Shown piece by piece: positions 12,001 through 18,000 of a DNA stretch of 64,000 nt (within the stretch, counting starts at the first letter, position 1; each line of letters starts with the position of its first letter). The stretch is taken from IMG/VR virus record IMGVR_UViG_2880378312_000006. One strand, written 5' to 3'. Source of the stretch: a virus (taxonomy: Duplodnaviria; Heunggongvirae; Uroviricota; Caudoviricetes). The position numbers were made by a program.

Positions 12001-15000
12001 GCCAGAGTCTATTCAGTGTCCAATTACACTAGAGAGACCCGAAGAAGGAGTGTTTGTCAAAAATTCAGATAGTTCGGCAGTATGCTGCTTATTTGATTTT
12101 GATGCATTTTCTCGTTTAGCTAGTGAAGGCTCATATCATCCACTGACCCGAGAACCAATAACGGCATCAATGATTATAAGTCCTGATAAATGTGTTTATG
12201 ATCCTATCAAGGGAAACTTCATTATAAAAGATAGTTAAAATATTTTTCTCTGAGAGAGTATTGGCTGTCAGTAATTTGTAAAAAAACGCCGCAGACATCC
12301 AGAATATAAGAAGGTGTCTGTGGTTGGCAGGTTTCAGATGACTTGAAGGCGTCTTTATGTAAATGCATTTTTCTGTGGAGATGTTGTCGGAAAATATTGG
12401 ATTAAAAACATAATCCAAGTCAAATAGTAAGTTTGTTTTTTTTGAGATTAGGTGTGTGTATTTAGAATTTTTATGATGTGTTTATTTTGTGGGGTATTTT
12501 AGAAAAAATATATTAATCCTTATTAATAATAGCTGCCATCCATTTCAGCTATTATTTTAAAATAAACAAGTTAAAGCTTAGACTCTTGTTTCTTGGATTA
12601 TATCAAAGATATCAACATGATTTGATGGATTATGATGTGGTAAGCCATTGCTTTCGATATCGATTACCACATCCTCTGGATTTGGATGCCGCTGTCCAAC
12701 AGGGATACCTTCTTCCATTGCGCGTATATCAGCACCTGTGGCATGTTCAATATCTGCTTTATTGGGGAAAATAGCTCCTTCTCTTGCGTGCCACCATATA
12801 CGAGGATAGTCAGTGAATCTAGCTACTTCAAACTCGGCCTTGTTTAAATCGGCAGCCCCCAGTGTCGCACCAGCCCACCATAAAATAGTGTCTGGCTTTA
12901 ATCCAGGGGTATTATACTGTATGGCATGCCCTGCTGCTTGCCCAACCATTGCACCGATATGAGGACTTAACATTGGATCTGTACTAGCAAATCTGGATAC
13001 TGCAAATCCCCCTAAAGCACCAAGCGCATTTGCGGCAGCATTGGTAAGAACGGCATATTTAGTATTAGGGTTATCTAAATCCCACTTGAAATGTGCGCCA
13101 AACTCCAGCCCTAGAGTTGCCTGTAATGGAGATGCACCATATTTAAAATCTGCTTCTCCCGGTCTGATAACCCACTCCTCCGTGTAATTTGCTTTCGGCC
13201 CATCAGGAGTAAGTGGTGTTTCTCCAACAAGCTTCCATCCATTTTCAGTTTTGACTATAGGAAGTTCTACACCATGATTACGAACCACTTGAGCTGTTAA
13301 TCCAAACCATGGTATTGGGTCTTTTGGCTCGGTGGTTACCGTCGAAGTAGTGGCTGATGTTCCAGTCGATGCAATAGTCGACACTGCAGTGGTTGATATA
13401 TTACTGTTGCTTAATGCATTTTTTAACGGGCCAGGAAGGTCTTTAAAATTAAAACCTATTTCATCATGCAGAGGGAATATCTGTAAAAAATAATTACCTG
13501 ATGTAGGATGAATATCTGGTTTTACAATGTTTAGCTGGACACCATATTTACCAGAGATGCCTGAAACGGAACTAGGTATCTCTAATGCCATTTGGGTAAC
13601 ATTGAATAAACCAAACATATCCAATGTTTTTTTTCCTATGGATCCTTCTTCAAGGTGAGGAGCTATATATTCGTCTAGCCCTGAGAGCAGACCTTTATCT
13701 TTTATCAAGCTCAGTAGAGCTGTTGTTTCACCGCATTCCGGTGCATGTTGCTGTATATCATCTGGAATATTAACAACAAATCCAGCTTGGCATCCTAGAG
13801 GTAATTCGGATTGCGGTATTTGTGTAGAGGGTATTTGTTCTGTTTGATGATGTTGATTGTTTTGTGAGGTGATTCCAGATTGTATGGTCGGTTGAATGTT
13901 CATAATAAATCCTTATTACATGTTTATATCCATTAATAATATCAATCCATTGATACTATTAGTGTCACATATCCGATGTGGACAGCTTTAATATATAACT
14001 GTTTGAATGCTTGATTGATGTGACTTAGATCTCAAAATTAAGTTGTTAAATTTACCAGTTTATCGCTTGAACACTTAAAATAAATTATAAATGTTTCTGT
14101 TATTGTTTTTTATAGTTTAAATTATTGTTGGTTGTATAAGCTGATTACATTTTTACTCTAAGTGTTATAAATATTTTATACTGATATTAGTCTTATTATA
14201 TATTTTTTTAATGAAAATGAGCATAAAACTAAGACATATAATGCTTGGCAGCTTTATGCTCTTCTGATTGGCTGTATGTTTGATGACAAAAAATTAGCGC
14301 AAGAGGACAAAAAATCACCTTGCGCTAATGCTCTGTCTCAGGTCACTAATCACATCTAACTCATTGATTAATTGTGACTCTAAATGTAGTGTTTTGTCGC
14401 GTTTTGCAGTCTATCATTTAATCAATTGTATAAATAACATAATGATTTTTAATGTGTTTTTGTGATTTTATCCTCCTTCTGACATGGAAGTTGTTCGTTC
14501 AAAAATCTTATTAAATATCAAGTTGTTAAATCTGGTAAGTCATTATTGGTCAAAATAAAATCATTATCCGATTTCAATTTTGTCCCACTCCCGCCCGCGA
14601 CTGTCCCTATAATGCGCCGCCATTGAATCAGATTTATGTCCAAGAAGACGTTGTGCAAACTTGTAGCCAATCTGGTTCCGATATAGCCTCGCGGACAGAC
14701 TACGTAGTTCATGAAATGTCGGTGGGTCTCCATCAAACGAGATCCCGGATGCATTTCGCGCCTTTGTTAAATACCGTGATACTGTGGCTGGAGAAAGTGG
14801 TTCGTGATAGGTTGATGCGATTATTGTTTCACTGCTGCTGGCCTCCCTGCATTTCTGTAGTGTATCAACCAGTGAGATGTCGAGTGCGTCAATGGTTAGA
14901 GCCAGCGGAATGGCAATTTTGGCTCCTGTTTTACTCTGTCCAATGTGAAGATGACCATCGTTTATGTCTGACCACTTCATTCTGCACAAATCGCCCACTC

Positions 15001-18000
15001 TCTGCCCTGTAACGACAGCTAAATCCATTGACAGCCTCAGCCAGATGGGGAGGTGCTCAGCAGCATGGTAAATAGCGACATACTCATTAGCTGTCAGCCT
15101 TGAGCGCCTTACTTCTGACTTTGCTGCACGGGTTGTTGTTACTGGATTCGTTGCCACATGCCCCTCGGCTATTGCCCCTCGAAAAACGTCAACAAGGGTT
15201 GACCTGATTACTCTTGCGGAAACCGCTTTACCTTCTGCGACGTAGGTGTTTAGCATTGCTGCCACCTCTTTCGTTGATATGTCAGTGAGCGGTTTGTCCG
15301 GCAATTTTCTTCGAATTGCCCTGATTTTGCTGGCGTAGTCGAGTAATGTTTTCGGCTTGCTCCCCCTCTAGCTGAGGATTGTTTCATATCGATCAAGCCA
15401 CGTATGAAGAGTGATTGAGTCAGTGCCTTTAACCCTGTCCAGCAATGATTCGTGCCCACTTTCGCTGAAAAGCTCAATGTTGGTGTGAATTCTACGAGCA
15501 ATGAAATGCCTCGTGGAAGGATGCAGTGATGATTTTAATCCTTTTGATATTATTAGGGTACCAGATCTTACTTACAACAAAGGATCTTTACAATGTGGAT
15601 GATTAGAGGCCTGTGAGCCTGTTTAGGATTCTGTGTAAATGCCTTTTCTTAAAAGTGACCGTCAAGACGGTCACCAAACTCGATAATAAAGCGGCTCATT
15701 GCCATTCGCCAGTCCCTTAACGGCATTGTCCATTTCTGTGACGCGGCCTGGATTGCCAGCCACACCACTTTTTTTACTGACTCGTCCGTCGGGAACACCT
15801 TGCGTTTCCTGATGGCATGCCGGATCACACTGTTCAGCGACTCGATGGCGTTCGTTGTGTAGATCACTTTGCGGATATCTGCCGGATAAGCGAAAAACGT
15901 CGCCAAGTTAGTCCAGTTTGACAGCTAGCACCGGCTTATCTGCGGATAGCGGCAGTCCCAGGCCGCAGCAAACGCTTCCAGTGCCTGCTGGCCTGCCTCT
16001 TCTGTGGGAGGCTAATCGCTTTCAGGTCGCGAGTGACGGCTTTGTATTCCTTCCATGACACGAAGCGCATGCTGTTGCGCACCATATGCACGATGCATAA
16101 CTGGATGCGGGCCTCCGGGAATTCTTTCAGGCCATACACACAGGCGATGAGGATATCGTTCAGACCGCGGTTTTTCAGTTCAGTCAGCACATTGAACCAG
16201 AAATTCGCCCCTTCATTTTCGGCCAGCCGCATCCCCAGGAGCTCTTTCTGACCTGCGATATTGATGCCCAGTGCTAGGAACATTTTTATGATAAAAAATT
16301 AGTGCAAGAAGACAAAGAATCGCCTTGCGCTAATGCTCTGAAACAGGTCACTAATATCATCTAAATAGTTGACTCATAGTGACAGCATGTGTTGTGTCTT
16401 GCAGTATTATATAGCCTATTATTTAGATTGAAGCCATCATAATCTATTGATGTTAATGGTTTTTTATTGTTTGTTGTTCGGCTTTTTATACTAATTTGAG
16501 CGAAACAAAAAGATAAAAAGTTGTTTTTCGGTAAGCGTACAGCGAGGGCCGTATTGACGGGGATGTGTTATTCAGCTGGCAGTGCTATGCGCCACGGAAG
16601 CAGTTCGCTGACCCGGTTGACCGGCCAGTCTGCTATGACGCCAAGCACATGGCGAAGGTAGCTTTCTGGATCCACGTCATTCAGTTTGCACGTCCCGATC
16701 AGGCTGTACAGTAGCGCTCCCCGCTCACCACCATGATCAGAGCCGAAGAACAGGAAGTTTTTACGACCCAGACTGACCGCCCGCAGGGCATTTTCAGCGA
16801 TGTTGTTGTCGATTTCCACCCAGCCATCGTTCGCATAGTACGTCAGTGCCGGCCACTGGTTAAGTGCGTACGCGAACGCCTTCGCCAACTCTGAGTGTCG
16901 CGACAGGGTCTTCATCTTTTCACGCAACCAGCTTTCCAGGGATTTCAACAACGGTTTCGTTTTTCGCTGACGTTCAGCAAGCCGCTGCTCTGCCGGCATT
17001 CCCCTTATATCCGCCTCTATGGCGTACAACTGACCGATCTGCTCCAGGGCTTCTTCCGTCAGTGCTGACGGGATGCGGACGTGCACATCGTGGATCTTTC
17101 GGCGGGCATGAGCCCAGCAGGCAGCTTCCGTTATCCCACCATTGCGATACAGCTCGTTGAACCCGGCGTACGCATCCGCTTGCAGCACACCGCTGAAGCA
17201 GGCAAGATGAGTCTGCGGATGGATGCCTTTTCTGTCCGGGCTGTAAGCGAACCACACTGCAGGTGCCAACGCTGACCCTGCATTGCGGTCATCACGAACA
17301 TACGCCCACAACCGCCCGGTCTTCGTCTTCTTATTACCCGGCAGCAGTACCTGGACCGGGGTATCATCGGCATGGAGTTTGCCGTCAGTCATGACATAGC
17401 CATGAAGCGCCTCTTCCAGCGGAGACAGCAGCCGGCAGCATGCATCCACCCAGCCCGACAGCAGTGAACGCCTCAGCTCCACACCTTGCCGGCCGTATAT
17501 TTCTGACTGGCGATACAGCGGGGTGTGCTCTGCATACTTCGAGGTCAGCACGCGGGCCAGCAGCCCCGGTCCGGCGATACCCCGCTCGATGGGCCGCGAA
17601 GGTGCAGGTGCCTGCACGATGGCATCGCACTGAGTACAGGCATGTTTTTCCCGTACCGTCCGGATAACCCGGAAGGCGCTACGCATCAACTCCAGCTGTT
17701 CGGCGGTATCCTCGCCCAGATAGCTCAGTGAACCGCCGCAGTTCGGGCAGCACGGCGCCGCAGGCAACAGTCGCTTTTCGTCACGGGGTAGTGATTCAGG
17801 GAACGGCTTACGGGTGCGGGTCTGACGCAACGGACGCTGTACTGCCGGGTCATACACCCTACCAGTCAGCGTATCGCTCTCTTTCTGAAGCCGGTTCAGA
17901 TCGGCTTCCATTTGTGCGATACGGCGGGAGACTTTTTCGGAACGACTGCCGAAGTTCATCCGGCGGAGTTTATCCAGCTGCGCCTGCAGATGGTCTATTT

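Follow-up and report, generated by a model that had tools for sequence, protein, structure and literature searches.

The locus studied here raises the question of how two sequences resembling the attachment (att) region of phage lambda came to lie on either side of a dead integrase gene within one prophage. Both are found in a 64,000-nucleotide (nt) stretch of the viral record IMGVR_UViG_2880378312_000006 (Caudoviricetes), hereafter called the window, and a first-pass annotation had read them as the scar of tandem or nested lambda-type integration. Our follow-up analysis makes it probable, with a good deal of room for doubt, that the two copies are nonfunctional fossil integration modules of two phages of the lambda/HK022 family, stacked by nested accretion with deletion in the exchangeable effector locus of prophage Sp9. 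Nested integration is thus closer to the evidence, and tandem integration was not borne out. By megablast, this region of the window was 100% identical to hundreds of Escherichia coli O157:H7 genomes, and the matching region of strain Sakai is annotated as "prophage Sp9; lambda-like phage," right end. From these matches, the window is assigned to E. coli O157:H7 and placed at the right end, where the effectors lie, of prophage Sp9, which is integrated at ompW.

We first asked whether the two copies are related to each other and to known att sites. A repeat search returned a single direct-repeat family, in which positions 14279-14420 (copy 1) and 16284-16425 (copy 2) were 77% identical over 142 ungapped nt, and copy 1 matched copy 2 of Sakai with an E value of 1.4e-25 (BLAST). 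The P1 motif CAGGTCACTAAT occurred exactly twice in the 64 kb, at 14339 and 16344, against a mean of 0.21 in shuffled sequence. In a five-way alignment comprising both copies, lambda at 27.5 kb, HK022, and the K-12 attB, the copies were collinear with lambda and HK022 from the sib hairpin through arm sites P1 and P2. Alignment to lambda attP and E. coli attB, the check proposed in the first-pass annotation, thus bore out its claim of two real sib/attP-arm-like copies. IS (insertion sequence) fragments and effector genes do lie beside both copies, as would suit a spurious similarity, or repeats that mark the ends of IS elements or effector cassettes and have nothing to do with integration. However, the long collinear homology to the sib-attP-int regions of lambda and HK022, the existence of cognate attB, attL, and attR sites, and the host B' flank of copy 2 (see below) leave such an explanation next to no chance.

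The sib hairpins were assessed by RNA folding. An Rfam search of the whole window at gathering thresholds placed no family over either hairpin, and a simple consensus terminator scan flagged neither of them. When the block formed by sib, P1, and P2 was compared pairwise, copy 1 and copy 2 were 74.6% identical, copy 1 and HK022 were 85.2% identical, copy 2 and lambda were 84.5% identical, and lambda and HK022 were 88.7% identical. The copies are therefore not local duplicates, because each is closer to a free phage than to the other. Judged from these alignments, their resemblance is a matter of family-level conservation of the integration module, in which sib and the arm-type Int sites are kept across the integrase family. 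The cores are unlike each other: that of copy 1, TGACATGGAAG, belongs to yfaT/yfaS, whereas copy 2 has the lambda overlap TTTATAC. Neither copy sits at its own cognate chromosomal attB.

Copy 1 lies at the dead integrase and follows the attP order, as had been claimed. It is, however, larger than the interval 14296-14430 given at first: the full site covers 14279-14575, in the order P arm, core, and P' arm, followed by the 3' end of the integrase remnant. The P arm (14279..14479), delimited by the repeat, an inverted repeat, and alignments to lambda and HK022, contains the sib/tI hairpin (~14283-14340; functional orientation on the minus strand, from the inverted repeat and the RNA fold), the P1 arm-type site (14339-14350; an exact motif match), and a P2-like site around GTGAC at 14374 (alignment with HK022). 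The core (14480..14490) is an 11-bp identity shared by attP, attB, attL, and attR. The P' arm (14491..14575), which overlaps the 3' end of the integrase remnant, has the IHF-consensus-like sequence TATCAAGTTGTTA and three HK022-like arm-type sites (GGTAAGTCATTATTGGTCAAAATAAAATCATTAT). The hairpin keeps its position downstream of int on the int-coding (minus) strand, where it folded at -29.6 kcal/mol (z = -7.5) into the same shape as its counterparts in lambda (-24.3) and HK022 (-28.0). It may still terminate transcription upstream of nleA. This gene, part of the effector cargo, lies directly to the left of copy 1 (12578..13903, minus strand, in the annotations of Sakai and strain 7784).

The cognate sites of copy 1 were found elsewhere. 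The yfaT/yfaS junction of K-12 is an undisturbed attB (...caacaactta TGACATGGAAG gacacccgatgg...). An O111:H8 genome has an attR in which nleA, sib, and a P arm 92% identical to that of copy 1 are followed by the same core and then by yfaT'/yfaS. About 15 kb to the left of it is an attL composed of yfaT, the same core, and a P' arm, followed by an intact integrase of 356 amino acids (aa; WP_000533670.1) and an excisionase. Both O111:H8 sites diverge from copy 1 exactly at the core. In a scan of viral contigs, 14 loci matched the copy 1 core. Because attP, attB, attL, and attR all agree, we read copy 1 as the complete, unrecombined attP (P-O-P') of an HK022-family phage that carried nleA and was specific for yfaT/yfaS. 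A block of this kind was also seen on a plasmid of O55:H7 strain USDA5905 (pUSDA5905_2, 62.8 kb), where positions 5267-7927 hold a ykgJ-like fragment, nleA, a copy 1-type attP (89% identical), and an integrase pseudogene; the block formed by nleA, attP, and the truncated integrase (int') therefore travels as a unit, outside prophages too. Separately, the IHF-like motif (A/T)ATCAAGTTGTTA, which matches the consensus WATCAANNNNTTR, was noted at 14514-14531 in the P' arm of copy 1, at 14034-14051 upstream of nleA, where it is imperfect, and at ~19158-19173, next to the serT relic described below. These recurring motifs may be remnants of the IHF sites of att arms.

Among known phages, HK022 (Shamshuipovirus HK022, X51962) is the one that copy 1 resembles throughout its sib-attP-int region. 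Positions 14270-15500 were 84.5% identical to it, with 97% of the length covered, and just 69% identical to lambda; copy 1 and the integrase remnant are collinear with HK022 and share its sib hairpin, P1 and P2 sites, and P' sites. They differ at 8 of the 19 central core positions (CTTCTGACATGGAAGTTG in copy 1 versus CTTTAGGTGAATAAGTTG in HK022), and the target is torS-torT for HK022 but yfaT/yfaS for copy 1. In line with this, the junctions of an HK022-type Stx1a prophage lying between torS and torT read CTTTAGGTGAA, and copy 1 has CTTCTGACATGGAAG instead. Copy 1 also differs from HK022 in being an unrecombined site inside another prophage, next to an integrase that is truncated and carries a stop codon.

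The integrase pseudogene (14564..15481, minus strand) has 305 codons, which correspond to residues ~52-356 of HK022 Int, with 86% aa identity over 311 aligned residues (tblastn and translation). It was 87.4% identical at the nt level to the intact int of the O111:H8 yfaT prophage. Residues 1 to ~51, that is, the N-terminal arm-binding domain, are gone, and an in-frame TAG is present at 15368-15370, but the motifs of the catalytic domain are still legible. The Prokaryotic Genome Annotation Pipeline (PGAP) labels it "internal stop; missing N-terminus." In the O157 genomes, one place alone matched copy 1 together with the 3' end of the integrase, and no cognate intact int was detected. For the lambda-type site, the corresponding Sakai prophage at lambda attB is Sp3. 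The integrase of Sp3 is disrupted, according to Asadulghani et al. 2009. Since O157 is without a cognate active integrase for either site, neither copy is expected to recombine, and both are likely to be inactive at present.

Copy 2 turned out to be a site of another kind. Its P arm (16284..16480, from alignments to lambda) comprises a degenerate sib/tI hairpin (~16288-16345, from the RNA fold), the P1 site (16344-16355, an exact motif match), and a P2-like site (GTGAC at 16379, from the alignment). The core, GCTTTTTATACTAA (16481..16494), keeps 14 of the 15 lambda core bases; the T-run is one T short, and the overlap TTTATAC is intact. Over 16284-16530, the identity to lambda 27529-27742 was 80.6%. 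The hairpin is degraded: an A.C mismatch on the minus strand weakens its fold to -14.7 kcal/mol (z = -1.9). A 20-mer from this P arm had no match among contigs taken from one genome per species. Outside the ompW prophages, the sole end-to-end phage match to 16284-16530 was the annotated attR of DN1 (MF374379), a lambda-bio-type transducing phage.

To the right of the copy 2 core are 67 nt of the bacterial B' side of lambda attB, from the spacer between ybhC and ybhB. This flank is split by ISEc8, an element of the IS66 family (16531..18972, from annotation), which is bordered on both sides by an 8-bp target duplication, GTTTTTCG, at 16523-16530 and 18973-18980. The first part of the flank (16495..16530) therefore ends in these 8 nt, and the second part (18973..19011, delimited by comparison with K-12) begins with them. 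After removal of ISEc8 and one duplication copy, the flank matched K-12 at 73 of 79 aligned positions, with one 8-nt gap, and a 55-nt B' stretch was 90.9% identical to the native site of other E. coli strains (E = 2e-10). The homology to K-12 stops inside a hairpin just downstream of ybhB, which is probably the ybhB terminator. The uninterrupted form, without ISEc8, is found in O145:H28 (PPompW_132418) and in 255 complete genomes (O103, O111, O121, O145, and O55), always beside the same IS1414 fragment. The earlier description of copy 2 as running into a near-consensus lambda core, one T short, and then into a bacterial B' arm was thus correct. Taken together, these alignments identify copy 2 as the right prophage junction (P-O-B', attR) of a lambda-attB-specific phage, one that would have carried nleH1-2 and nleF. 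Like the lambda attR at gal-bio, copy 2 has a lambda-type sib and P arm, the overlap TTTATAC, and a B' arm with host flank. It differs from lambda in being just 80-84% identical, with a core one T short and altered C and B' core-type sites. It also differs from a lambda attR in its surroundings, since it lies in an ompW prophage and not next to ybhB-bio, no ybhB or bioA follows it, and its 67 nt of host DNA are fused to the serT relic.

These assignments bear directly on the proposal in the first-pass annotation that copy 1 is the central attP and copy 2 the attR of a tandem lysogen at a single lambda-type attB, whose second prophage was nearly all deleted. The topology would suit it: the order is cargo, attP, int', and then cargo and attR, an interval of phage length has been lost, and same-site tandems do occur nearby, at ompW. 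The cores, however, are TGACATGGAAG in one copy and lambda TTTATAC in the other; the arms come from different lineages; the whole structure lies inside an ompW-bounded prophage and not between gal and bio; and copy 1 has a separate set of attB, attL, and attR at yfaT/yfaS. A same-site tandem is therefore excluded as a description of the pair by differing cores, differing arm lineages, and separate attBs elsewhere with an ompW-bounded array, and we regard it as very improbable. What stands of the proposal is the loss of a second phage, for which the DNA between the copies gives the evidence.

The first-pass annotation had left only an integrase pseudogene and an IS256-type fragment between the copies. 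Both are present, together with a 121-nt 3' remnant of nleF. Comparison of the same locus in related strains, also suggested at first, was informative: Sakai, O55:H7, O145:H28, and O111:H8 revealed both a deletion and the cognate sites. In Sakai, the integrase remnant extends to codon ~23-27, where it is joined to the final ~70 nt of a second tail fiber C-terminal gene and its terminator. Over 140 nt, this tail fiber stub shares 92% identity with the resident gene (window positions 11480-11618), and nleH1-2, nleF, and the IS1414 fragment follow it. The O55:H7 annotation has the same order of integrase remnant, tail fiber fragment, nleH1-2, and nleF, and most O157:H7 genomes have the tail fiber gene stub, nleH1-2, and nleF between the copies. 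Because Sakai and O55:H7 both carry the junction of the truncated integrase with the tail fiber gene stub (int'/tfa'), the ancestral order was tail fiber, nleG2-1', nleA, sib-attP-int' / tfa', nleH1-2, nleF, IS', and sib-P-O-B'. It follows from the int'/tfa' junction that a phage-length interval, from xis through the tail fiber, was lost between two phage right ends.

There are few genes between the copies in the window because of a lineage-specific deletion of 1674 bp, whose junction lies at 15481..15482 by comparison with Sakai. This deletion removed integrase codons ~23-51, the int'/tfa' junction, the tail fiber 3' stub, all of nleH1-2, and most of nleF, and its junction is present in one piece in 57 complete O157:H7 genomes (FRIK944, FRIK2455, 7784, etc.). 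The sequence at the junction happens to be GAATTC; an engineering scar at 15481 was considered and rejected, since these 57 natural isolates have the same junction. To its right lie the last 40 codons of nleF (15482..15602, plus strand, in Sakai coordinates; "type III effector, missing N-terminus" in PGAP) and a fragment of the IS1414 transposase, of the IS256 family (15649..16283, minus strand, from annotations), the N-terminal side of which, toward copy 2, is missing. The same IS1414 fragment adjoins copy 2 in O145:H28 and in 255 other genomes. The locus in O145:H28 PPompW_132418 is without the tail fiber, nleA, copy 1, nleH1-2, and nleF, and at 11090-11100 a truncated lom is joined directly to the IS1414 fragment, an arrangement that resembles the product of an IS-adjacent deletion spanning the entire copy 1 module.

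The DNA adjoining the host flank of copy 2 was then examined. Directly next to the lambda B' flank, head-to-head with it, is the 3' half of tRNA-Ser(UGA), from the anticodon loop onward, together with the downstream terminator region (19043..19138, minus strand, by alignment and BLAST). This relic was 79.8% identical to serT over 99 nt (E = 6e-16, BLAST) and faces the espO-nleG cargo. It was visible by direct alignment only: ARAGORN found no tRNA in this region, and a permissive Rfam scan of 18975-19230 was negative. Both flanks, B' and serT, are collinear with K-12, as if the ~224 kb between them had been removed. By its alignment, the serT relic is a third prophage/host junction relic of the locus.

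How could two such modules have been brought together? In the explanation that we favor, imprecise excision, or an illegitimate join of another sort, would first have picked up the end of a prophage at lambda attB along with adjacent host DNA, in the manner of lambda-bio transducing phages, and the captured end would have entered the ompW-phage lineage. Next, the conserved tail genes would have allowed a circular or neighboring yfaT-type nleA phage to recombine with the resident prophage. Integrase codon ~23-27 would then have been joined illegitimately to the last ~70 nt of the resident tail fiber gene, an event that removed everything from xis through the tail fiber and gave the order cargo-attP-int'/tfa'-cargo-attR. 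The order and mechanism of the recombination steps are inferred. Several points weigh against this explanation. No genome was found in which a complete second prophage separates the integrase remnant from the tail fiber stub, nor was a prophage with a copy 2-type P arm found at the native gal-bio site, all matches of at least 99% being in the context of the IS1414 fragment and copy 2. The B' flank is joined to host-derived serT and not to ordinary phage DNA, which a single lambda-bio-type excision does not predict. In addition, the tail-gene crossover is assumed, and the terminator role of the copy 1 hairpin is putative, the consensus terminator scan being negative.

The junction with serT also bears on another possibility, that a lambda-att phage carrying nleH1-2 and nleF was integrated by Int into a host-derived lambda attB (B-O-B') already present in the effector locus, copy 2 being the surviving attR after later deletion of the attL and most of the guest phage. 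Host-derived attB segments (yecE, ykgJ/ecpE, and ompW-like) that were entered by phages do exist in the same locus, and a B' flank adjoining host-derived serT is what would be expected of a block of captured host att fragments. Against this, no B arm or attL was found. An empty B-O-B' was seen neither in 60 sampled genomes of the 600 matching complete genomes, which is a thin sampling, nor in the 11 viral-contig loci with the B'-serT junction, all of which had the P arm or the form split by ISEc8; across this sample of genomes and viral contigs, the copy 2 locus showed P-O-B' only, without a B arm. Such an integration would by itself also leave the intact attP of copy 1 unaccounted for. We therefore consider it rather unlikely, and nested accretion with deletion remains the preferred explanation.

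Integration of phages into host-derived attB segments inside prophages has been described by Nakamura et al. 2021 (PMC8112680), where three host-derived att pieces of the effector locus are ascribed to host chromosomes. Their attB-in-PP_1 to _3 (PP, prophage; Nakamura, Ogura, Gotoh, Hayashi, PLoS Pathog 2021, PMC8112680) belong to the same PPompW family and the same locus, and they are host att-site DNA beside cassettes of type III effectors. Host origin also holds for the lambda B' flank and the serT relic. The published sites differ from the two copies in being complete attB landing pads, whereas copy 2 is a recombined P-O-B' and copy 1 a phage attP. In the window, a ykgJ/ecpE-like piece at 24235-24409 (~71% identity to K-12) appears to be attB-in-PP_2, and a yecE-like piece from the yecD/yecE junction at 24597-24694 (91% identity to K-12) appears to be attB-in-PP_1. 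Another ykgJ/ecpE-like piece, just after espM1 at 21648-21810 (~71% identity to K-12), may be an extra one beyond the published set. The terms ybhC, HK022, and yfaT were absent from the main text of Nakamura et al. 2021 (PMC8112680) in a term search, and no serT-derived sequence is described in the sections of its Results and Discussion that were read.

Seen together, these pieces allow a broader but doubtful suggestion, in which the effector locus would have archived relics one after another, at least five of them: the yfaT/yfaS attP, the lambda attR and B' flank, the serT junction, the ykgJ/ecpE pieces, and yecE. Cassettes would have been repeatedly mobilized with an att end and a sliver of host DNA and then stacked, the slivers later serving as landing pads. 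If this were true, the cassettes would have been mobilized by events like specialized transduction; the attB-in-prophage set would gain two members not yet described, the lambda B' fragment and the serT fragment, and the head-to-head fusion of these two would be the record of one specific rearrangement.

The wider setting of the two copies is that of the Sp9 locus. In Sakai, the order is tape measure, J, lom, tail fiber, nleG2-1', nleA, the integrase pseudogene (ECs_1813), nleH1-2, and nleF, followed by partial IS1414, ISEc8, espO1-2, nleG, espM1, partial IS630, and nleG9', and it ends with a C-terminal piece of ompW, beyond which lie yciE and trpA. Both copies are thus enclosed by the ompW att sites, with another 8.4 kb of effector cargo to their right. 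These ompW sites, by which Sp9 excises, were defined by Asadulghani et al. 2009, and no internal att relic is described in the passages of that paper that were consulted.

The working right att site of Sp9 in the window is the ompW 3' duplicate at 24916..25041 (plus strand; alignments and Nakamura et al. 2021, PMC8112680). From 25044, the window departs from single-lysogen strains and enters a second lambdoid prophage of the ompW type, with an integrase at 25087-26217 (minus strand) and, at 62271-64000, tail genes 93% identical to those of Sp9. On this evidence, the ompW duplicate is the central site of a true same-site tandem in this strain. A tandem PPompW pair is described for FRIK2069 in Nakamura et al. 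2021 (PMC8112680). As in that type of tandem, the window has an Sp9-like prophage, an ompW' core, and the int of a second prophage, and it displays the precursor topology of cargo, central att, and int. The FRIK2069-type tandem has one att specificity and both prophages largely present, whereas the pair formed by copy 1 and copy 2 has two specificities and the intervening phage is gone. Rfam and ARAGORN placed DicF, the sok antitoxin, tRNA-Met and tRNA-Arg, and STnc100 in the second prophage, at 29593-29644, 36854-37028, 41322-41574, and 42344-42516, and no stx-sized open reading frame was found after its tRNAs. The DicF, sok, and tRNA matches to the right of 25 kb had raised the possibility that the window is not Sp9, which was rejected because they belong to the second tandem prophage.

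This locus is heavily studied and belongs to a genome that is among the best studied in bacteria; features of this kind are known, and no new mechanism is involved. Literature searches for Sp9 with ompW and nleA and for ECs1813 returned no match, and in the literature searched yfaT was named solely as one listed integration site. That literature appears to contain no description of the yfaT/yfaS attP, of the lambda attR and its host flank, or of the serT relic that abuts this flank.

The build-up of effector genes at one end of the lambdoid prophages of enterohemorrhagic and enteropathogenic E. coli has so far been understood only in part, and the route by which host att sequences enter phage genomes is left open in Nakamura et al. 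2021 (PMC8112680). The fossils described here give dated, sequence-level boundaries between the cassettes nleA, nleH1-2-nleF, and espO-nleG-espM, the first two of which each came with a different integration module. For annotation, they are a caution that attP- or attR-like sites within prophages need not be current borders. The stacking of virulence cassettes is recorded at this locus by dead sites, rather than by a simple double lysogen, and the P-O-B' junction with its host DNA is direct evidence of capture at a prophage end.

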